Shown here piece by piece: positions 47,182 to 58,748 of a stretch of DNA of 64,000 bases. This DNA is from a virus (lineage: Duplodnaviria; Caudoviricetes). The position numbers were made by a program, and so were the translations under genes. The DNA is taken from IMG/VR virus record IMGVR_UViG_3300036713_000599, one strand, 5' to 3'. Each line of letters opens with the position of its first letter. Position 1 is the stretch's first letter. Under the pieces are notes generated by a model, which was given only the letters and a program-made list of their open reading frames with translations, ran no database searches and was not told the origin of the DNA.

Positions 47182-47230
47182 GTCTCTTTTGCGAGGTCAC
47201 AAGAGGATTCTGGCGCAGGCGGCTAGACAA

Positions 47231-47309
47231 GTCAACTGCCTCGCCCTGAAGGGCGAGGCAGTTGACCCCCGCCCTGAAGGACGGGGTCTCCGCGCGAGAG
47301 ACCGATGAA
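47231..47309. repeat. perfect 16-bp hairpin plus IS200/IS605-end-like motif, copy 2
   Basis: gtcaactgcctcgccc-tgaa-gggcgaggcagttgac, then ccccgccctgaaggacggggtctcc...gatgaa. Confidence 0.85.
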
Positions 47310-47405
47310 TTTGGTTGGTGTGATGTACGGGAAGAAGGTCGACAAACCTAAGGCTCTTTGAGAATTTGGTCCGATTCGAGGAAGATAGGAGGAGGTCCCT
47401 ACTTG

Positions 47406-47783
47406 CTACTTTAGGGCGCGTCTACCTAGTGTCACGAATTCACCTAAGGACATTCGCAAGGCTTCTTGCCGTTTCTTGATACGATCTGAAACAGCCCTGA
47501 GTTTGGGAAACTCTTTCTTGTAGAAATCGCTGATATTGTAGTCTATGTCAGGCACTGATCTCACATATTTTAGAAATTCTTCGGCTTTCTTTACCTTCTG
47601 TTCGAGCATCTCTTTACCGTCTGAGCTTGCGGTTCGATCAGGATCAAGCCTGTCTGCGAGATCGTGTAGTTTTTCTGCTACGACCTCTCTGCTTGGTCTT
47701 TCGTACGAACTGACGAATTCTAAGACATTCTGGATCTCTGTCTGTAGCTCTTGGGGAGATGCTATCTTTTTCATGTAAGCCAT
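47406..47783 (-). CDS. hypothetical phage protein
   Basis: MAYMKKIASPQELQTEI...DRTASSD. Confidence 0.7.
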   Translation of the reverse strand: MAYMKKIASPQELQTEIQNVLEFVSSYERPSREVVAEKLHDLADRLDPDRTASSDGKEMLEQKVKKAEEFLKYVRSVPDIDYNISDFYKKEFPKLRAVSDRIKKRQEALRMSLGEFVTLGRRALK

Positions 47784-47806
47784 GGGCTAAAAAATGTTTA
47801 TCACGG

Positions 47807-47835
47807 TTGACAACTGTATTTTCTGGCGGTATAGA
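47807..47835 (+). promoter_or_regulatory. sigma70-like promoter
   Basis: TTGACA-17 nt-TATAGA with no convincing plus-strand ORF downstream. Confidence 0.6.
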
Positions 47836-47841
47836 TAGAAT

Positions 47842-48184
47842 TGATAGGAAGTGGAGTCAACGATAACCAAGTTGGCGTCATTTTTCATCACAACCGGTAG
47901 GAAACATATACGGTGTTATTATCTCGGGGTGCCGACAGGCTCCGCCCCCTGCGTAAGCGGCTTGGGCGGAAATAAATCGATAATGGCTTAGGTCGCCCGA
48001 CTAAACCGAAGCCCTCAGCTGGGAAGAGACAAGGTGCTCAATACGGGAGCGAGCCCACACCCAGCACACCCTTGGTTGGTTTTTTCTGGCCTCGTGGTGC
48101 CCGTTGACGGCTCGGAAAGACGAGCACTTGAGCATACTTGGAGTTCCGGTGTGGTTCGATTCCACCTATGCTCTCCTAGAACCA
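47842..48184 (+). ncRNA. candidate structured ncRNA ending in a tRNA-like acceptor/T-arm module
   Basis: Hairpins at 47941-47970 (GTAA tetraloop) and 48110-48125; GAGCATA (48130-48136) pairs TATGCTC (48167-48173) around GTGG-TTCGATT-CCAC. Confidence 0.45.
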
Positions 48185-48227
48185 TTTTACCTCATAGAGA
48201 TAAAATGGTGGATCGGACAACGACTCT

Positions 48228-48503
48228 TTACGAGGAGCTTGTAAAGACACCGCGCACCCATGAAACTACTAGGGCTAGGAGACCTCCTATGAACACGGCG
48301 TTGAGGAACAACAAGCCTCCCATGTCGTGGTGAATGAGTCTCCCGCCCCAATGTAGGAGGCTGGGGAGGCGGCTGACATCTGGCTGGATGGACAACTCCG
48401 TCTCTAGCTGAATTTGAGGATTTGCTAGGAGATCCACGACGGCGTAGACGAGGATACCTATAGTGTTGATTCCCCAGAGGAGCAGGAACTTTTTGACACT
48501 CAC
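48228..48503 (-). CDS. small two-TM membrane protein (holin-like)
   Basis: Two hydrophobic helices in 91 aa. Confidence 0.5.
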   Translation of the reverse strand: MSVKKFLLLWGINTIGILVYAVVDLLANPQIQLETELSIQPDVSRLPSLLHWGGRLIHHDMGGLLFLNAVFIGGLLALVVSWVRGVFTSSS

Positions 48504-48535
48504 GATCTATCTGTTCGATAAGTGGACCACAAGGA

Positions 48536-48916
48536 CTACAGTACAGGTTCATTGTCTTTTACGAGTTGCCCGATCGTTTTGGCGAGATAGTCTGCTACCT
48601 TGGAGGGATGCCCGCTCTTGGCACGAACCTTCTTGGCACCGAATAGGTTGACCAATGCCTTGGCTTTGACCTTTGTGGCGGGATCTTGGTCGAAGTCCAC
48701 CATGAAGACAGCACGGTTGTTCATTGCTTGTGCGCCTGTCGATCCATAGGACTTCGGTAGATTGATAAGAGTGACTGCGACATTTGTTGATCCGAAGCGG
48801 CTGTCCACTTCGACAAACACTTGTCGATCTTCGACATTAAGTTTTCTTTCAAGCTCTTTTTTGAAGTCTTCGGCACTCATGGGTTCGTCGGCAGATGTTT
48901 TGTAATAGTCGTTCAT
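48536..48916 (-). CDS. hypothetical protein
   Basis: 126 aa, GAGG RBS. Confidence 0.7.
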   Translation of the reverse strand: MNDYYKTSADEPMSAEDFKKELERKLNVEDRQVFVEVDSRFGSTNVAVTLINLPKSYGSTGAQAMNNRAVFMVDFDQDPATKVKAKALVNLFGAKKVRAKSGHPSKVADYLAKTIGQLVKDNEPVL

Positions 48917-48976
48917 TTTTTAACCTCTGCGTGTAATACGATCTGAGTTCGCATATGTTCGGTTGTGGTTGTGAAT

Positions 48977-49438
48977 TTATCTGAGCGTGTTCGAGGGCTG
49001 TGTGTCTGGTACAGGTTCTTCGTCCGTGTTCAACCCGTCCGGTAGATCTTCCGAGAACGTGTTCCGCCTTTTTCGTTCGATGGCGAACGCGACGCGTCGG
49101 AAGATCATGGTTGTGTTGGTGAAGTTTTTGACGATGAAGTCCTCTGCTCCGAGTCGGATCATCCGGAGAGCCAGTTGCAGGTCGGTCGTATTGCTGACCA
49201 CTACAATAGGTATCTCCGGGTATGCGTTGTGTAGTGTCAAGAAGGTGTCGATACCGGACGAGTCAGGTAAATGTAGGTCCAGGATGACGCAGTCGAACAC
49301 GCCTCGCTCCAGGTAGTCACGAGCAGACTGTAGGTTACCTACCTCTCGGAACTTGGCCTCAGAGATGTAATGCTCTTGAAGGGCGAACACGAGGAGTTCT
49401 CGGTCAACGGAGCTGTCTTCGACGATCAGGATGTTCAC
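48977..49438 (-). CDS. response-regulator receiver protein
   Basis: ILIVED, VILDLHLPD (phospho-Asp), VVVS, FIVK. Confidence 0.92.
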   Translation of the reverse strand: MNILIVEDSSVDRELLVFALQEHYISEAKFREVGNLQSARDYLERGVFDCVILDLHLPDSSGIDTFLTLHNAYPEIPIVVVSNTTDLQLALRMIRLGAEDFIVKNFTNTTMIFRRVAFAIERKRRNTFSEDLPDGLNTDEEPVPDTQPSNTLR

Positions 49439-49713
49439 ACGGCCTCCTCTATCTTTTTGACAGGAACGTGCCCTTTTGGCCCTTCAATGACACCATCTTC
49501 GATCGGCCACCCTTTTTGTAGCGCCAGTGCGTCGATATCCCGTCCGCGGACAACAGCACTTGCGATGTCTTTGGCTTGGCCACTTGAGAGCCCTGTCTCC
49601 TCACGGATCATTTGAACAAGTCTTTTGACTTTGTTTTCTTTCTTTTCTTTTGGCTGGTATTTAAAGGCTTCTTTAAGGTATCTTTGGACGACACGTGCGG
49701 TAATAGATCCCAT
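49435..49713 (-). CDS. hypothetical protein
   Basis: MGSITARVVQRYLKEA; stop overlaps the receiver start. Confidence 0.65.
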   Translation of the reverse strand: MGSITARVVQRYLKEAFKYQPKEKKENKVKRLVQMIREETGLSSGQAKDIASAVVRGRDIDALALQKGWPIEDGVIEGPKGHVPVKKIEEAV

Positions 49714-49829
49714 GCTTACGTCATACATAGGTAAATTTTCGGCAGTGTCTTAGGTTTGGCCGCAGTTCAGCAGACCGGGGCACTGATTTCTGTGGCCGGG
49801 TGCTGCAGGCTTGAGCTTTACCAGACAGA

Positions 49830-50270
49830 CTAGGAGGGTGTGTAGGGAGGGGGCGTGCTTCTGTGGGGTAGTAAGGTGAACTGTAGCCACAGGTAGTGGA
49901 GTTTTCGGGCTAACCTCAACAGCTTCGGGAAACCTACAGGTTTTCGCACGAAGGCGTTGCATCTGCACTCATATGCTTTCTGTACGTCCTGAGGGTGTTT
50001 GGAATTGGTCAGGATGACAACAGGTATCAGGTTGATGTCGGGGTCGGCGTCTTGTCGGATCTCTTTGAGTACTTCAAGTCCACCTACCTTGGGCATATTT
50101 AGATCAAGTAGGACCAGTTTTGGTTTTTTGGGCATCCCTCTCAGAGTTTTAAGCGCAGCTTCCCCGTCCGTTGCAATCGTTATTGACGGCATGTGTGTAC
50201 AGGCATCCCTGAAAGCTTCTGTGAGAAGCTCGGCATCGGTCGCATTATCCTCAACCAGGAGTATGTCCAT
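49830..50270 (-). CDS. single-domain response regulator (Rcp1-like)
   Basis: ILLVEDNATD, LVLLDLNMPKVGGLEVL, PVVILTNS, NAFVRKPV. Confidence 0.95.
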   Translation of the reverse strand: MDILLVEDNATDAELLTEAFRDACTHMPSITIATDGEAALKTLRGMPKKPKLVLLDLNMPKVGGLEVLKEIRQDADPDINLIPVVILTNSKHPQDVQKAYECRCNAFVRKPVGFPKLLRLARKLHYLWLQFTLLPHRSTPPPYTPS

Positions 50271-51348
50271 TTTCGACCCTAGGTAGTGTGAAATGGAATT
50301 TTGTACCTACCCCTGGTTTCGACCAAGGCCAGATTTTACCTCCGTGTTGCTCTATAACGCGGCGCGCGATGGCGAGACCGATCCCTGTGCCAGGGTACTG
50401 TTCGATCGTATACAGGCGTTGAAAGACACCGAAGATCTTGTTTTTGTGTTGCATGTCAAAACCGATCCCGTTATCGCTTACAGTAATCTTCCACAAAAAC
50501 GGGCCGTACGGTTCCACTTCTATTTTGATGTGAGGCGGTTCGTTTTTCCGTCGGTACTTGATCGCGTTCGAAAATAGATTCTGAATAACTTGGGCGACCA
50601 TACTACGGTCACCATGGATGAGAGGCATGTCGCCCGCTACTTCGATGCGTGCCTTAGATGTGTCTATTTTTCTGACTAGTGACCGTTTTGCTTCCTCAAT
50701 GGCAGCCCCTAACGGGAAAGGCTCGAAGGGTCTTTCTTGGCCTGCCTTCGAAAAGGCCAGAAGATCGTCTAGCTTTTTTTCCATCTGTTGTGAAACGGTC
50801 ACGATCCGGTCTAGAAAATGACACCCTCGTTCGTCTAGGGCGGACTGGTACCTTTTTTGTAGAAGGGTCGCGAATCCTGCAATCCCGGTGAGAGGCTCAC
50901 GGAGGTCGTGTGACACCAGAGACGTGAACTGAGTGAGAGCCTGGTTGACCTCTTGGAGCTTGTGTTGGTGTTCGACGGACTCTGAGATGTCTCTGGTAAT
51001 TACGACGGCAGTATTGTTCGAAGATTTTCCCATATGGGCTTGAAAGTGCTCCAAAGTACCGTTCTTTTTAGGCACAGAGTAAGACAGTATCGCACTCTCT
51101 CCTGTTTCAATGACTTTGCGGACAGCTTCTGTGATCTTGTTCGCGACGTCTTCAGGTAACAGGTCTCTGACATTTTCGCCTATGGGTTTGTTGGTGGAGG
51201 TGAACAGGTACCGCCCTTCTGCGTCGATTTCCGACACAGGATCAGGAAGGGCTTTCATGATACCGTGCAACCTGCCTAGAACTCTCCCTCTCGGGCACTG
51301 GTGTTCGTTCTCACACCTTGGTGGAGTATTTGGGATTATTTGTGTCAT
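50251..51348 (-). CDS. soluble PAS-histidine kinase
   Basis: PAS-like ALPDPVSEIDAEGRYL...VVITRDISE; H-box VSHDLREPL; N-box QNLFSNAIKY; DNGIGF; IFGVFQRL; GTGIGLAI. Confidence 0.95.
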   Translation of the reverse strand: MTQIIPNTPPRCENEHQCPRGRVLGRLHGIMKALPDPVSEIDAEGRYLFTSTNKPIGENVRDLLPEDVANKITEAVRKVIETGESAILSYSVPKKNGTLEHFQAHMGKSSNNTAVVITRDISESVEHQHKLQEVNQALTQFTSLVSHDLREPLTGIAGFATLLQKRYQSALDERGCHFLDRIVTVSQQMEKKLDDLLAFSKAGQERPFEPFPLGAAIEEAKRSLVRKIDTSKARIEVAGDMPLIHGDRSMVAQVIQNLFSNAIKYRRKNEPPHIKIEVEPYGPFLWKITVSDNGIGFDMQHKNKIFGVFQRLYTIEQYPGTGIGLAIARRVIEQHGGKIWPWSKPGVGTKFHFTLPRVENGHTPG

Positions 51349-52289
51349 TGGCTGTTACTTGGTGGTGGTGTGGTCTCGATTGGTGCCGTGATGGTGGTTT
51401 TTTTGTTGGTGTTGGCCGCGAAGTAGGTCGCAGCTGCTGTGGCAAGTACGCCGAACAGAGTTAGGGCGGCGATAACTACCTTTACCCACAGGTCCATCTT
51501 GGTTCGCATTGTCTGGTTGTGTTCCTTGAGCACCGTCATACCTGTCTCAGTCACTTCGTCGTGTAGACCGTCGACGTTGCCTTCGAGAACACTGATCCGG
51601 TGGTCCAGGAGGTCAACCTGGGAACGCATACTTGGGCGATTACTGTGACCTCGCAACAGTTCTTTGTCCAAGAGTGTGACTGTTTTGATTATTTCGTCTT
51701 GCTGTAGCCCTTGTTTGGCGATCTTGAGGCTGATGTCTTGCAGTGCTGAGAAAGTCTTTCGGGACAGATCTGCCACAGCTGAGGTGGTTTCAACTTGCAT
51801 GTCTCGAATAGTGTCGGCACTGGCCCCCCTCTTTTGGGCTTTGTTCATCTTTAACTTTGTGCTAGACACTCGACGAAAACTATCCGCCTCTGTGGGTTCT
51901 AGTCTTACATTTCGTTTGTGTTTTTCGATGGCGAACACGATGCGTCGAAAAATGTCTTCTTCGTCTGTGTACTTTTTTAAAATGAAGTCGGCGGCCCCTG
52001 ATTGGATCATTTCGACTGCGAGGAGCCGATCCTTGTTGTTGGTCATCACAATGAACGGCACATGGGGGTACTGGTCGTATAGTTTTTTGAATGTTTCTTT
52101 GCCGATCGAATCAGGCAGATGAAGGTCGAGTACAACACAGTCGATTGTCTCAGTGTCCAGGATATGAACAGCTGCCGCCAGGGACGGTGCTTCGTACAAA
52201 GTTACCTCTCCTCGGAATTGTTCTTGGAGCAGGTACCGTAGGATTTCTCGGTCCGGGGCTCTGTCTTCTACGAGCAGTATGTGTTGCAT
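51345..52289 (-). CDS. receiver-coiled-coil-transmembrane fusion protein
   Basis: ILLVED, VVLDLHLPD, FILKK; LDHRISVLEGNV coiled coil; C-terminal VKVVIAALTLFGVLATAAATYFAA. Confidence 0.88.
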   Translation of the reverse strand: MQHILLVEDRAPDREILRYLLQEQFRGEVTLYEAPSLAAAVHILDTETIDCVVLDLHLPDSIGKETFKKLYDQYPHVPFIVMTNNKDRLLAVEMIQSGAADFILKKYTDEEDIFRRIVFAIEKHKRNVRLEPTEADSFRRVSSTKLKMNKAQKRGASADTIRDMQVETTSAVADLSRKTFSALQDISLKIAKQGLQQDEIIKTVTLLDKELLRGHSNRPSMRSQVDLLDHRISVLEGNVDGLHDEVTETGMTVLKEHNQTMRTKMDLWVKVVIAALTLFGVLATAAATYFAANTNKKTTITAPIETTPPPSNSQ

Positions 52290-52714
52290 TTCAAGTAATA
52301 TGGGCCACAAATGCATTTGCGACGACCAGAGGAGCAGTAAGAGTTCGGGTCTTTTGTTGCGGCTGGTATACAGTGTAGAGATACCGAGGTAACACGGTTA
52401 CCGGTAGGATCAGATGACGGCTTTCTACGAGAAGGCAGTGTTGGTGTCGGATTTAGTGATTAGGAGGTGTAGCATGGTTTGGAGATTTTCCAGTTTTGTT
52501 GGATTTTTCACTGTCAGGGTCCCAGGGCAAGAGGATCAGAAATATTCTGAGTTCTGTGAGGCTGCGGATGCTGTTATCAGGTCTAAGAAATATACGATGC
52601 TTTTCGATCCGTGCGGTGATCTTATGTTGACCAAAGGATCCCCCTCTTGATTGCTTGTGTGGAGCTGGTTGTTCCGGGGAGACGTACGAGATCTTGTTCT
52701 GGGCTTGATTCCTG

Positions 52715-52960
52715 GTGAAAATAATGTCGAAAAAACTAGAAAGACCGGTTATCCGGGTCACCTCTGAGGAAGGCTTTCCAGGTTCCGGTTCTTGGCGTAC
52801 AGAATGTCAGTGTAATCCGGGTTGTGTTGAATACAGGTGTCTTAGTTGTAGGGAGGTGTGGTGTAGCCGTCCCAGTAAGGGCCCGTGTCCCAAATGCGGA
52901 CACCATAAATTTGTGTGGTGTAATTACACAGAATGGTGTAGATCACATGAAATGACTTAG
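52715..52960 (+). CDS. Cys-rich zinc-finger protein
   Basis: CQCNPGC, CLSC, CPKC. Confidence 0.55.
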   Translation: MKIMSKKLERPVIRVTSEEGFPGSGSWRTECQCNPGCVEYRCLSCREVWCSRPSKGPCPKCGHHKFVWCNYTEWCRSHEMT

Positions 52961-53088
52961 TGGTGACGTGTTGGTAAACTGTCCCTCTGGTCCTAGAGGG
53001 AGTTGAGTGGGGCTCACGCCCTGCTGTTCCTGTTTCACCTCAACGGTCCTGGTCGATGTTTGGCGTCAATGTGCGAGAGGAATGATGT

Positions 53089-55202
<2,114 letters not shown>

Positions 55203-55236
55203 CCTTCGCGTACCTTCTTGTTGGAACGCTTGGTAG

Positions 55237-55629
55237 GTGGATAATCGTCTCTTCAAAGTACACGGTCAGCGGCTACACGGCCTTCGTCGCCAGGATCTTC
55301 CCGAGGTGGCTAGGGCCATTGTGGCTGTTGTTCGTAAACAGGCCCAAGCATCGCGTGAGAGGTACCAGGGCGTCGGCTACGTACGTCTGTCGGGCTCTGG
55401 TATAGACGAGATTGTCCTGGCATCGGACTGGGATCTTGTCACGCCGTTCATAGAGGACGGCACATTTAGCCCCCTCACATACCCAACAGGGTCGTGTTTC
55501 GGGTACCTTGATCCAGACACACACTTCGACGGCGCGACGCTAGATCGAAAGGACTGGTATTTCTATCAGCGTGTTTTGGGTGTTCTTGAGCAAATCTTCA
55601 CTGACAGTTACCCTGTTCCCAACACATAG
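55237..55629 (+). CDS. hypothetical protein
   Basis: 130-aa ORF in the run. Confidence 0.6.
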   Translation: MDNRLFKVHGQRLHGLRRQDLPEVARAIVAVVRKQAQASRERYQGVGYVRLSGSGIDEIVLASDWDLVTPFIEDGTFSPLTYPTGSCFGYLDPDTHFDGATLDRKDWYFYQRVLGVLEQIFTDSYPVPNT

Positions 55630-55638
55630 GAGACTACT

Positions 55639-55866
55639 TTGTCTGACAATAAAAATTCCCACCTCGCCCCTGGACTGAAGCTGCCTCAACCTCCGCCGCG
55701 GGAAGACAACAAAAAGGTTGTTAACATAAAGTGTCGCAATAAGGGCTGTGATTCCATGACTGCGGAAATTCTTGAGATTCCTGGAAATGGCCACCAGAGA
55801 GTATATCGCTGCACGGAGTGTGGTCACCCTATCGCTGTAAATGTGGGCGGAGGGGTTAATTTCTAA
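55639..55866 (+). CDS. zinc-ribbon protein
   Basis: CRNKGC and CTEC. Confidence 0.6.
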   Translation: MSDNKNSHLAPGLKLPQPPPREDNKKVVNIKCRNKGCDSMTAEILEIPGNGHQRVYRCTECGHPIAVNVGGGVNF

Positions 55867-56663
55867 TGAGAGAACTAGATGTCGAGACGTTGAAGGCGTT
55901 CGAGGGATTTGTCGCTAAGCATATCCCTGGGTTTGAGGTAAGGTACAAGGACGAGTCGTACCTAATGGCCATTTTGGGAGTCCTTGCTGCACCTTTCAAC
56001 AGGGACTTTGCGACAAGATACACAACCACTTGGGGCAAGAGGGTGTACTTCCCTAGTAGGGAATTTTATCGTGTCGACCCCTCTCGGAGTTTTCGGATTC
56101 TTGCTCATGAATTCGTACACTTGTGGGATAGCCAGGAGCACTGGTACTTTAAGTTATCTTACATGATGCCACAACTCCTGGTATTGGTGCCTATCTTGGT
56201 GCTCATGTTCTTGCTGGGGACGTGCTCTTGGATCCTGGGAGTTCCGATCATAGGGTATGTCTTAGGCGCTGCCTTACGTTCTGTTCACTTCGCCCTTTTC
56301 TGGTTCGTCTTTGGTGTGTCGGTCATAGGGACGGGTATAATGTTGGTGTTTTTTGGTGGGTGGTTACCCCTTGTGGTAGGGTTAGTTGCTCTCCTCTGTT
56401 TGTGCCCATGGCCTTCCCCTTGGCGCACTAAGTGGGAGCTTAGGGGTTACGGGATGAATGTCGCATTGGCCCGGTGGTTGTACGACACCACTTCTGCAAA
56501 GCACTTTTTCAGCATTGCCCGCCACTTCACTGGTCCGAATTATTTCTACATGTGTCGATCCTTGACTAAGATCCTGGCGGCGTTGGGAGACTACACACCT
56601 AGGGACGGCGTTCCCAGGGACGAGCCATATCAGAGAGTCCGTGCATTCCTCAGAGGTTCTTAG
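55866..56663 (+). CDS. membrane protein with HExxH metalloprotease motif
   Basis: ILAHEFVHLWD, WELRGY, several TM helices. Confidence 0.7.
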   Translation: MRELDVETLKAFEGFVAKHIPGFEVRYKDESYLMAILGVLAAPFNRDFATRYTTTWGKRVYFPSREFYRVDPSRSFRILAHEFVHLWDSQEHWYFKLSYMMPQLLVLVPILVLMFLLGTCSWILGVPIIGYVLGAALRSVHFALFWFVFGVSVIGTGIMLVFFGGWLPLVVGLVALLCLCPWPSPWRTKWELRGYGMNVALARWLYDTTSAKHFFSIARHFTGPNYFYMCRSLTKILAALGDYTPRDGVPRDEPYQRVRAFLRGS

Positions 56664-56665
56664 TA

Positions 56666-56848
56666 ATGTCAGATTCTCTTGGCTTGGTACGATGCCTTCG
56701 GTGTAGAAGCACTTTAGACAGGAGCGGTAAAGAACCCCACCGGCTTGTCTGTTCAGCCTGTGGACAACATTTTTTGGTGGTGTTGCAGCTAGTCCCTGTA
56801 GACGCTCCAAAAGAACCTCTTCTCTTGGAAGATATTGATGCTCAGTGA
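56666..56848 (+). CDS. zinc-finger protein
   Basis: CLRC and CSAC. Confidence 0.55.
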   Translation: MSDSLGLVRCLRCRSTLDRSGKEPHRLVCSACGQHFLVVLQLVPVDAPKEPLLLEDIDAQ

Positions 56849-57776
56849 TGTTCAGGAACAGAGTGAGGGTGTTCGGCTCCTTAGGCGGGTCGTCGATGGG
56901 AGTATTTCCACTCCCTTGCTCCTTGTGGGTGATGAGGGCGTAGGCCGTCGGTTTTCTGTCATCTCGGCAGCGAAAGAGGAGTTTTCCGGCGGGAACGCCG
57001 ATAGCGACCATTGTTTCAGGATTTCCAAAGAGGCTCATCCTGACCTCATTACCGTTCGCTCCGACGACAAAGGCATCGGTGTAGATACTATACGAGATGT
57101 TGTACGGCTGTCGAGTTCGTTTCCTTCAATGGTTCCTGTACGTTACGTTGTCATCGACGGTGCTGACACGATGACAACCTCGGCGTCAAACGCCCTCCTC
57201 AAGACTCTAGAGGACCCTCCGCGTTCCACAAGATTCTTTCTGCTCGCTTCTTCGTTTGAGTCGGTTATCCCAACTATTCGTTCTAGGTGCGGTCTCGTAA
57301 GATACCGATCTTTATCGGAAAAATTTATTCTTAGCTTCTTGGGACGGCACACGGACGACAACACTAAGGCACTTGTCTGCACTCGTCTCTCAGAGGGTTC
57401 GGTTGGTCGAGCCTATCAAATTCTTGCATCAGGTCGACTGTCCCTTCGGACAAAAATGTTTACCCTTTTGGAGCTGGGTTTGGCTGGAGACATATCACCT
57501 CTGTTTTCGACTATAGATGATGTCGAGAATGACCTGGATCAAGGGCTCCGTTTCCTGGGGCAACTCATCCGAGATTTGGTCATCCTCCCTTACGCTCCCG
57601 ATCGAGTTTCCAACTTGGATATTCAAGATCAGCTAGCTCTCTTTCGCGACCGGCTGGACGAAAGGTATCTAAGCAGGTTGGTCGCAGGGTTGAGTCATCT
57701 CCGGAACCAGATGAGGGGGAGTATTCACCTTCCCTTCCATATCAAGACTTACCTAGTCTCTGCCTTTGGAGTGTGA
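56835..57776 (+). CDS. holB: DNA polymerase III delta-prime-like clamp-loader subunit
   Basis: LLLVGDEGVGRR, HPDL, VVIDGADTMT..ASNALLKTLEDPP, IPTIRSRC. Confidence 0.88.
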   Translation: MMLSDVQEQSEGVRLLRRVVDGSISTPLLLVGDEGVGRRFSVISAAKEEFSGGNADSDHCFRISKEAHPDLITVRSDDKGIGVDTIRDVVRLSSSFPSMVPVRYVVIDGADTMTTSASNALLKTLEDPPRSTRFFLLASSFESVIPTIRSRCGLVRYRSLSEKFILSFLGRHTDDNTKALVCTRLSEGSVGRAYQILASGRLSLRTKMFTLLELGLAGDISPLFSTIDDVENDLDQGLRFLGQLIRDLVILPYAPDRVSNLDIQDQLALFRDRLDERYLSRLVAGLSHLRNQMRGSIHLPFHIKTYLVSAFGV

Positions 57777-57779
57777 TTA

Positions 57780-58748
57780 ATGGTCGCTAAGCCTCGACCA
57801 GGGCCTTTTCGTGTCTTTTTTGGGGACGAGGCGTACCTCCTTGATGAGATCTTGGTGAAGGCGAAGAGCCAACAGGATCGAGACGTGACTGTCTTTGACG
57901 GTAAGGATAAGGGTACTACAGGGAAGGACATTGTATCCCTGTGTGAGATGCCCAACTTCGCTGGTCAAGATAAGGGTGTTGTTGTCGATAACGCCCATAA
58001 GTTAAAAAAACCAGAGCCTCTTCTGGACTTTATCAAAGGGTGGGACGTCAATGACGATTCCGTGGTTCTGCTTATCATCGCTCGGGCAAGTAAGATTGGA
58101 TCGTGGATCAAAGCGGCTGCGGATTTAGGTGTTGTTCGGGAATTTCAGCAACCAAAACCGTGGAAGCTTGAGGAGCGTGTTGCTCGAATTAAGAGGCAGG
58201 CTGACAAGGTCGGTGTACGGTTGGATGACGACGTGCCCGAGCTTTTGATCAAGATCTTAGGTTATGACTTACGGATCATTGTTAATGAGCTGAATAAGCT
58301 GCACTACCTGGTGGACGGTGAGACAGCGAATCGAGATCACGTGCGACAACTCGTACCTTTTCTGTTTCCTGTTGAGCCTTACCAGGTAGCAGAGGCGGCT
58401 CTTAGTAAAAAGCCTGACAAGGCTATGACCTTGCTTAGTTTCGTCTACCGCAACCTTGGGGCAAGTGCACATGTTCCTGTAACGTACGCACTTTTGCGGC
58501 TCTTTGAGAGAGTTCTTCTCGTTCGGGACATGTCGGATCGCGGGGACTCTACTAAGGTCATCGCGGAACGGTTAGGGATGCATGAATTCGCCCTAAAGAA
58601 GAACCTTTTGCCTATGGCTCGTCTACACCAGGTGAGCGAGCTGAGGGCTAAGATGCAGACAGTATGTAGATTGGACACACTGGTAAAGGGGCCGGCTCGA
58701 TCTAAACGAACTCAGGTCGAACTGGTCCTTTTTTCTATCGCCTCGTGA
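57780..58748 (+). CDS. holA: DNA polymerase III delta-like clamp-loader subunit
   Basis: VFFGDEAYLL, VVVDNAHKL, DLRIIVNELNKLHY, ELVLF; follows holB. Confidence 0.78.
   Translation: MVAKPRPGPFRVFFGDEAYLLDEILVKAKSQQDRDVTVFDGKDKGTTGKDIVSLCEMPNFAGQDKGVVVDNAHKLKKPEPLLDFIKGWDVNDDSVVLLIIARASKIGSWIKAAADLGVVREFQQPKPWKLEERVARIKRQADKVGVRLDDDVPELLIKILGYDLRIIVNELNKLHYLVDGETANRDHVRQLVPFLFPVEPYQVAEAALSKKPDKAMTLLSFVYRNLGASAHVPVTYALLRLFERVLLVRDMSDRGDSTKVIAERLGMHEFALKKNLLPMARLHQVSELRAKMQTVCRLDTLVKGPARSKRTQVELVLFSIAS

Follow-up and report, generated by a model that had tools for sequence, protein, structure and literature searches.

The window considered here is the whole 64,000-nucleotide stretch of the IMG/VR virus record IMGVR_UViG_3300036713_000599 (Duplodnaviria; Caudoviricetes). 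On its minus strand, five closely packed genes (48977-52316, open reading frame list) encode, in this order, the receiver protein RR1 with a C-terminal membrane anchor, a soluble PAS histidine kinase, the single-domain receiver RR2, the small protein orf97, and a further single-domain receiver, RR3. The genes probably represent a self-contained two-component system of a lineage of huge tailed phages, long co-inherited, in which the PAS kinase signals to the membrane-anchored RR1, and RR2 and RR3 form a side branch or a sink. The chemistry is that of an ordinary phosphorelay, but both its owner and its output are new.

The initial annotation described two translationally coupled runs, 52289>51348>50270 and 49713>49438. 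The sequence agrees with this description. The RR1 stop and the kinase start overlap by 4 nt (ATGA), the kinase and RR2 genes by 20 nt, and the orf97 stop and the RR3 start by 4 nt (GTGA), with the GTG start codon of RR3 placed behind a GGAGG. In the complete contig of 241 kb, the receivers of the cluster are the only three receivers, and the cluster kinase is the only protein with a HATPase_c domain.

The kinase is a DHp-CA enzyme of class I by Pfam, alignment and model, with an H-box histidine and N, G1, F and G2 boxes. All its Pfam matches are above the curated cut-offs, namely PAS_4 (residues 33-125, E 4e-6), HisKA (138-204, 3e-14) and HATPase_c (246-357, 2e-26). The boxes are located at residues 146 (SHDLREPL, with the phospho-acceptor H147), 256 (QNLFSNAIKY), 292 (DNGIGF), 305 (IFGVFQRL) and 320 (GTGIGL). 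H147, N261, D292/G294/G296, F306/F309 and G320/G322/G324 are invariant among 22 relatives, and the highest hydropathy over 19 residues is 0.60, so that the earlier description of an enzyme with intact boxes and without a transmembrane helix holds. The kinase core is closest to bacteriophytochrome and HK853-type kinases in PDB searches. The AlphaFold2 (AF2) model of the kinase, with a predicted local distance difference test (pLDDT) score of 82.3, matches PAS kinase structures over the full length (4GCZ, 8A6X, 4I5S, 3A0R). This fold match to YF1/ThkA-type PAS kinases carries no information on the ligand. Public gene calls place the start of the kinase at Met31 (335 aa). The longer form of 365 aa is favoured here, because the first 30 residues are conserved in four relatives, and because of the ATGA overlap. 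A C-x5-C-P pair precedes the PAS domain in the five nearest relatives only. Redox or metal sensing through this pair was considered and rejected, since the distribution is too narrow.

All three receivers keep the acidic pair (E-D), the phospho-acceptor aspartate (D56 in RR2, D54 in RR3), the threonine or serine, and the lysine, as the initial annotation had claimed for the acidic pair, the aspartate and the lysine. The Response_reg matches in Pfam are above the curated cut-offs for RR2 (E 3e-20) and RR3 (E 2e-20). In the PDB, RR2 is matched by 5te9 (1e-24), the Deinococcus response regulator 6xvu (9e-22), Rcp1 (1i3c, 4e-20) and RcpA (5e-19). Judged by these sequence matches, RR2 is a member of the Rcp1 class, whose receivers are associated with phytochromes. 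The identity between RR3 and the receiver of RR1 is 47%, and the two genes still share DNA-level repeats (49076-49105/51924-51953 and 49371-49434/52219-52282). According to tblastn, RR3 occurs only in this phage and in its closest relative (L005, 372 kb). In view of the identity, the residual DNA similarity and the restriction to two phages, RR3 is a recent duplicate of the RR1 receiver, which has lost the tail or never had it. The protein encoded by orf97 matches no family. It carries the N-terminal tag ITARVVQRYL, and its orthologues start with IVARIVQRYL, VARRVAKRF or IAQRVAFRY. Although orf97 is coupled to RR3, it is found without RR3 in two relatives (L008 and L012), and therefore probably lies outside the signalling core.

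In RR1, the Response_reg domain spans residues 13-121 (Pfam, E 7e-19), and the residues E, D, D, T and K of the receiver are invariant in an alignment of 25 sequences. It had been stated that none of the receivers has a DNA-binding output. This is correct in that no such domain is present in any of them, but it overlooked that RR1 does carry an output region. Behind the receiver there are about 190 residues of helices and coiled coil, which end in a C-terminal membrane helix (AF2 model, pLDDT 77.6). RR1 has exactly one membrane helix, predicted from hydropathy (2.14 at 278-296) and present in the model (267-294), and all orthologues retain this C-terminal helix. In two alignments, the best-conserved stretch of the whole of RR1 is not in the receiver, but in the output region (LDKELLRGHSNRPSMRSQVDLL, a loop that includes GHSNRPSM).

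A word-based search of 5.8 billion proteins returned 22 relatives of the RR1 output, all fused to a receiver and about 300 aa long. When 1.84 billion representatives were searched exhaustively with a profile, 48 matches were obtained, among them stand-alone forms of 120-190 aa (hmmsearch, library-wide E 2e-6 to 8e-4). The stand-alone proteins share a common plan, consisting of a helix, an L..G(N/H)GxPS loop, a second helix and a C-terminal membrane helix. The fused and the stand-alone sets align with each other in hhalign over 115 columns (probability 99.0%, E 4e-18), with the RR1 loop placed on the L..GNGxPS loop. By plan and by profile similarity, the RR1 output is thus a member of a family of tail-anchored coiled-coil proteins. 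In a metagenome contig (L099), the gene of a stand-alone member comes immediately after that of a receiver, which it overlaps by 4 nt. In the Microcoleus phage My-WqHQDG (OR578706), a stand-alone protein with coiled coil and transmembrane helix ends the cassette, directly after a receiver of the RR1/RR3 type. Modules that occur fused in one lineage and next to each other in others are, by a classical criterion, likely to act together. For this reason, the membrane module is read as the output of the receiver. Since the RR1 output is homologous to membrane proteins that are encoded beside receivers, the output should take place at the membrane and not on DNA, and the signal of RR1 most likely ends at the inner membrane. 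From these comparisons, the output region is a previously undescribed, predicted membrane-anchored coiled-coil module.

Several leads on the role of the RR1 tail were followed. Matches of profile searches in Pfam and the PDB to DUF1664 (15/21 members), DUF1515 (9/21) and the P22 tail needle gp26 (E 0.02) are regarded as coiled-coil noise. A fold search of the RR1 model against the AlphaFold DB clusters found receiver-domain matches only, and none for the tail. DUF7201, suggested by the ESM Atlas, was dropped, because the score of 0.83 is below the meaningful level and the DUF7201 profile matches nothing in the contig. The tail also does not resemble proteins of the holin or XhlA type, as the XhlA profile (PF10779) has no match in the contig, even with a threshold as loose as E 10, and there is no lysis gene near the cluster. 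PHROGs searches with the stand-alone relatives and their neighbours gave no consistent family and no lysis gene; a single relative matched phrog_937 ("hemolysin"), at E 0.003 only. The prediction of an RR1 homodimer from two copies had a score of 0.02, which speaks neither for nor against a dimer. In a 402-kb contig with a divergent version of the cluster (L009), a gene for the membrane-stress protein PspA/IM30 is located 3.5 kb downstream (E 3e-11, L009:12601-13389). PspA was not retained as a lead for the membrane function, as there is no PspA/IM30 in the contig of this phage.

Could the cluster be host contamination, the product of a chimeric assembly, or decaying cargo without a signalling role? 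The window is part of a linear record of 240,951 bp that is about 50% complete according to CheckV, and the fragmentary state of this record leaves some room for the idea. Moreover, many GenBank "phage" records that match the kinase are evidently host fragments. In GenBank phages, a nucleotide search with the cluster found no match, and a protein search with the kinase found 148 records. Apart from the Microcoleus phage, the matches listed are unannotated short pieces or records that carry common bacterial genes (glnL, rcsC and the like), and were not used. However, the contig also encodes a terminase large subunit (E 4e-29), a portal protein (3e-27), a head protease and tail fibres, and has a weak match to an HK97-type capsid protein. 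In the Logan assemblies, three sediment runs (two studies) contain the cluster. A 132,515-bp contig, present in two of them, and a 52,073-bp contig of the third cover window positions 47280-58000 with zero differences and run on far into the structural region, linking the cluster to the structural genes. The runs may be the source samples of the record, so that this is a test of the assembly, not of occurrence. The cluster is also syntenic in related phages from other samples, the catalytic residues are invariant across the clade, and the top cellular match is at most 45% identical. The explanation by contamination, chimerism or decay is thus already contradicted, and we consider it very improbable. 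The provisos of the initial annotation, that the contig should not be chimeric and that the kinase should be neither degenerate nor confined to this phage, have been answered in favour of the phage. As a separate observation, the terminase large subunit (1105 aa, outside the window, G000:C1:96735-100052, L095:735-4052) has a segment, residues 133-567, that three related phages lack in their terminases and two others have. It looks like a mobile insertion, for example an intein or a homing element.

Relatives of the kinase are found on eight viral contigs. The order RR1-kinase-RR2 is conserved on at least six other phage contigs (155-452 kb). By tblastn, it is present in L005 (372 kb), L006 (452 kb), L007/L012 (108 and 437 kb), L008 (182 kb) and L109 (155 kb), and in divergent form in L009/L010 (402 kb). 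The terminases of five of the records with the trio are 60-83% identical to the terminase of this phage, and one of the records is a complete 437-kb genome with terminal repeats. Taken together with the shared gene order, this indicates a single phage lineage, with which the cassette has travelled. In L005, L006 and L008, the trio is flanked on its divergent side by the phage GroEL gene and the small gene that precedes it. Eleven matches of the RR1 type and of the kinase among metagenome proteins agree in the size of the longest contig; these tabulated sizes suggest that the same RR1-kinase adjacency exists on many more metagenome contigs. The initial description of the cluster as one PAS kinase with three receivers is therefore accurate for this phage, but the conserved unit comprises only RR1, the kinase and RR2.

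Related kinases are also very common in cells. A scan with one genome per prokaryote species (185,579 species genomes) gave at least 594 confirmed kinase relatives. The best 80 of them are from many phyla, and are 30-45% identical to the phage kinase, in most cases only across the kinase core. A maximum-likelihood tree of the kinase core, which the initial annotation had called for, places the kinase of the window, the kinases of five phage contigs and all 40 sampled metagenome matches in one clade, with a support of 97 in the Shimodaira-Hasegawa-like approximate likelihood ratio test (SH-aLRT). This clade excludes all 80 best cellular sequences. In about 50 of the 80 cellular loci, a lone receiver like RR2 directly follows the kinase gene. 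The next gene often begins with a receiver like that of RR1 or RR3, and is a receiver-PAS-kinase hybrid in both loci that were checked. In view of this layout of kinase, receiver and hybrid, the phage cassette seems to descend, in streamlined form, from a multi-kinase arrangement that is widespread in bacteria.

The abundance of the family in cells makes it conceivable that the cassette interferes with the signalling network of the host. RR2 and RR3 could drain host kinases, or the phage kinase could phosphorylate Rcp1-like receivers of the host and so reprogramme its behaviour during infection. RR2 is indeed 35-44% identical to lone receivers directly after cellular kinases of the same family in many phyla, and its nearest solved relatives are phytochrome-associated receivers. 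On the other hand, the phage kinases are well apart from the cellular ones, no partner in a host can be named, and the kinase is inherited together with the receivers, is coupled to them in translation and, in one relative, is even fused to a receiver. The fusion is found on a 323-kb contig of an NCBI assembly (L093:6001-7948), where a receiver of the RR1 type is joined to a PAS kinase (492 aa) and followed by a gene of the RR2 type. The neighbours are phage-like, with HNH and endonuclease VII genes, and there is no membrane module nearby. The fused protein supports a functional link between the RR1 receiver and the kinase. Joint inheritance, translational coupling and an occasional fusion are the signature of cognate kinase-receiver partners, and interference with host networks as the main role appears unlikely.

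It is also conceivable that the cluster is a conflict system similar to Detocs. In this case, the kinase would sense a rival phage or a failing infection, RR2 and RR3 would buffer leaky signalling, and RR1 would be a membrane effector for superinfection exclusion or suicide. The three-part architecture of kinase, stand-alone receiver and receiver-effector is the same as in Detocs (10.1101/2023.01.24.525353), and the cluster lies in an accessory part of the genome, together with a Cas12-like gene and TnpB elements. However, PADLOC v2.0.0, for which the presence of Detocs models in the release was not confirmed, gave no Detocs or other defence match beyond weak generic receiver matches to PDC-M60 candidates. 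The sensor is a PAS domain, and no killing domain can be recognised in the tail of RR1. Typical defence islands are mobile, whereas the trio is stably kept in synteny beside the phage GroEL gene, as a core feature. A conflict system is thus quite unlikely, although its operon logic is similar.

For the phosphorylation partners, the cue and the action of the membrane module, we infer the following scheme. The soluble kinase would sense a cytoplasmic cue through its single PAS domain, autophosphorylate on H147, and hand the phosphoryl group to the aspartates of RR1 and of the lone receivers. RR1 would be the effector branch, with the receiver mounted on a hairpin-like coiled coil that bears the GHSNRPSM loop and is fixed to the inner membrane by a tail anchor. 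Once phosphorylated, the receiver would switch the conformation or the partner binding of the membrane-proximal module, so that the system would act at the level of proteins, at the inner membrane of the host, and not through transcription. RR2, and in this phage also RR3, would be a parallel branch, or phosphate sinks that set a threshold, like DtcB in Detocs. More tentatively, the tail-anchored effector switched by phosphorylation might convert the state of the host (energy, redox or a metabolite, read through the PAS domain) into an event at the inner membrane, such as the timing of envelope disruption, the exclusion of rivals, or remodelling. The receiver-fused form and the form split into separate genes might then be a new class of two-component output. 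The timing of lysis or of assembly and the draining of host phosphorelays, offered as examples in the initial annotation, are conjectures, and no link of the cluster to lysis genes was found.

Some observations weigh against a self-contained system with a membrane output. The assignment of kinase and receivers as partners rests on gene order, coupling and fusions. In the tree, the L009 and L011 kinases group with cellular sequences, so not every copy of the phage kinase has the same origin, and the 40 metagenome kinases in the phage clade include sequences from short contigs of unassigned origin. The profile of the RR1 tail does not align significantly in hhalign with the Microcoleus protein alone, and significance is reached only via the family alignment. 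On short contigs, most of the stand-alone relatives have no visible receiver neighbour. Searches of Pfam and PHROGs with the membrane module gave only weak coiled-coil matches that do not indicate a function. Finally, a scan for sigma-70 promoters and intrinsic terminators found no more signals than expected by chance.

Features of the gene cluster (positions in the window)
Feature	Position	Strand	Details and evidence
RR1: receiver, coiled coil and C-terminal membrane anchor	51345-52316	minus	323 aa from ATG 52316; 314 aa (MQHILLVED) from ATG 52289
RR1 receiver domain, phospho-Asp D64 (323-aa numbering)	51954-52280	minus	Pfam, alignment
Signature loop of the RR1 output module, LDKELLRGHSNRPSMRSQVDLL	51606-51671	minus	two alignments; hhalign with stand-alone relatives
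RR1 C-terminal transmembrane helix (predicted), followed by a tail of ~25 residues	51414-51491	minus	hydropathy, AF2 model, all orthologues
Soluble PAS-HisKA-HATPase_c histidine kinase	50251-51348	minus	365 aa; open reading frame, Pfam, alignment, AF2 model
Kinase PAS_4 sensor domain	50974-51252	minus	Pfam; core residues conserved in alignment
Kinase HisKA (DHp) domain, phospho-acceptor H147 (codon 50908-50910)	50737-50937	minus	Pfam, alignment
Kinase HATPase_c catalytic domain, N/G1/F/G2 boxes	50278-50613	minus	Pfam, alignment
RR2: single-domain receiver of the Rcp1 type	49830-50270	minus	146 aa; open reading frame, Pfam, PDB matches, alignment
orf97: small protein	49435-49728	minus	97 aa, alternative start 49713; open reading frame; matches no family
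RR3: single-domain receiver, paralogue of the RR1 receiver	48977-49438	minus	153 aa; open reading frame; 47% identity; DNA repeats

The surroundings of the cluster contain several further elements. Between the divergent RR1 and GroEL genes, there is a small open reading frame with four CxxC-type pairs, reminiscent of a zinc ribbon (52715-52960, 65% identity in L005). In related phages, the phage GroEL gene (53535-55202) is always preceded by a gene for a 143-aa protein that matches no family (53089-53520) and is a candidate co-chaperonin of the phage. Behind the last gene of the minus-strand run, there is a double hairpin on the minus strand (47215-47300, -56.3 kcal/mol, z -6.1) that includes an inverted repeat of 17 nt without mismatches. 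This hairpin is exactly where three independent assembly graphs fork, at a 43-mer of about twofold depth, and it may be a repeated element or a terminator. A motif search with GGAGGTGTA gave nothing interpretable for this operon, and no RNA dataset with the cluster was listed among the public runs.

Sensing in bacteria relies mainly on two-component systems, and nearly all characterised outputs of these are transcriptional or enzymatic. In the lineage described here, a complete and intact two-component system is a stable, lineage-specific possession of huge phages of lytic type from sediment, with an uncharacterised membrane module as its output. If the scheme inferred above holds, very large phages would monitor the physiology of the infected cell with a sensor of their own and act on the membrane, and a His-Asp relay would join arbitrium peptides and captured quorum-sensing receptors among the known routes to phage decisions. 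The RR1 tail would also be a new output domain for receivers that can be studied in isolation, and the proteins are small, soluble except for one helix, and easily tested. No such system is described in a survey of huge phages (PMC7162821) or in a comparative study of jumbo phages (PMC7824862), and the cassette is not mentioned in the paper on the Microcoleus phage My-WqHQDG. A phrase search for phage-encoded kinases or two-component systems found no published description. Pelagiphage kinases beside curli genes have been reported, without receivers.

Among the known systems, the pairs of Cph1 and Rcp1 and of bacteriophytochromes and their response regulators (1I3C/1JLK, RcpA 1K68, Deinococcus BphP-RR 8AVV, RpBphP2 kinase domain 8F71) have a HisKA core of the SHDLREPL type in common with the phage kinase. 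As in the phage, the gene directly after the kinase encodes an Rcp1-class receiver that consists of a single domain and has the C-terminal FW...LP helix. In contrast to the phytochromes, which have GAF and PHY domains and a bilin site, the phage kinase has only the PAS_4 domain as its sensor (Pfam). It is therefore no light sensor of the Cph1 kind, and the likeness to Cph1/Rcp1 noted in the initial annotation applies to the kinase core and RR2, where PDB searches agree with it, but not to the photosensory module. The phage system also differs in having an additional, membrane-anchored receiver upstream, and in being carried by a phage. ThkA/TrrA and HK853/RR468 of Thermotoga maritima (3A0R, 3DGE) and YF1 (4GCZ) resemble it in that a soluble class I kinase signals to a stand-alone receiver. 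In ThkA and YF1, a single PAS domain is joined to the DHp helix as in the phage kinase, the model of which aligns over its full length. However, these are cellular or engineered two-protein systems, and a receiver with a membrane coiled coil attached occurs in none of them.

Detocs (DtcA kinase, DtcB lone receiver, DtcC receiver-effector) shares the three-part operon logic with the phage trio, as a matter of architecture only. Its lone receiver has been proposed to act as a buffer, and its effector can be a transmembrane protein (bioRxiv 10.1101/2023.01.24.525353). The sensor is different and the effector domain unrelated, and Detocs is a bacterial defence system, whereas the trio is encoded by a phage. 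Another phage with a comparable cassette is the Microcoleus phage My-WqHQDG (88856-91946 of its genome), with a kinase that is 30% identical, a receiver of the RR2 type, one of the RR1/RR3 type, and the tail-anchored coiled-coil protein of the RR1-output family. These are annotated as hypothetical proteins and one "response regulator receiver domain protein". My-WqHQDG is a smaller cyanophage (163 kb), and in its cassette the kinase (545 aa) comes first, and the receiver and the membrane module, which are fused in RR1, are encoded by separate genes.

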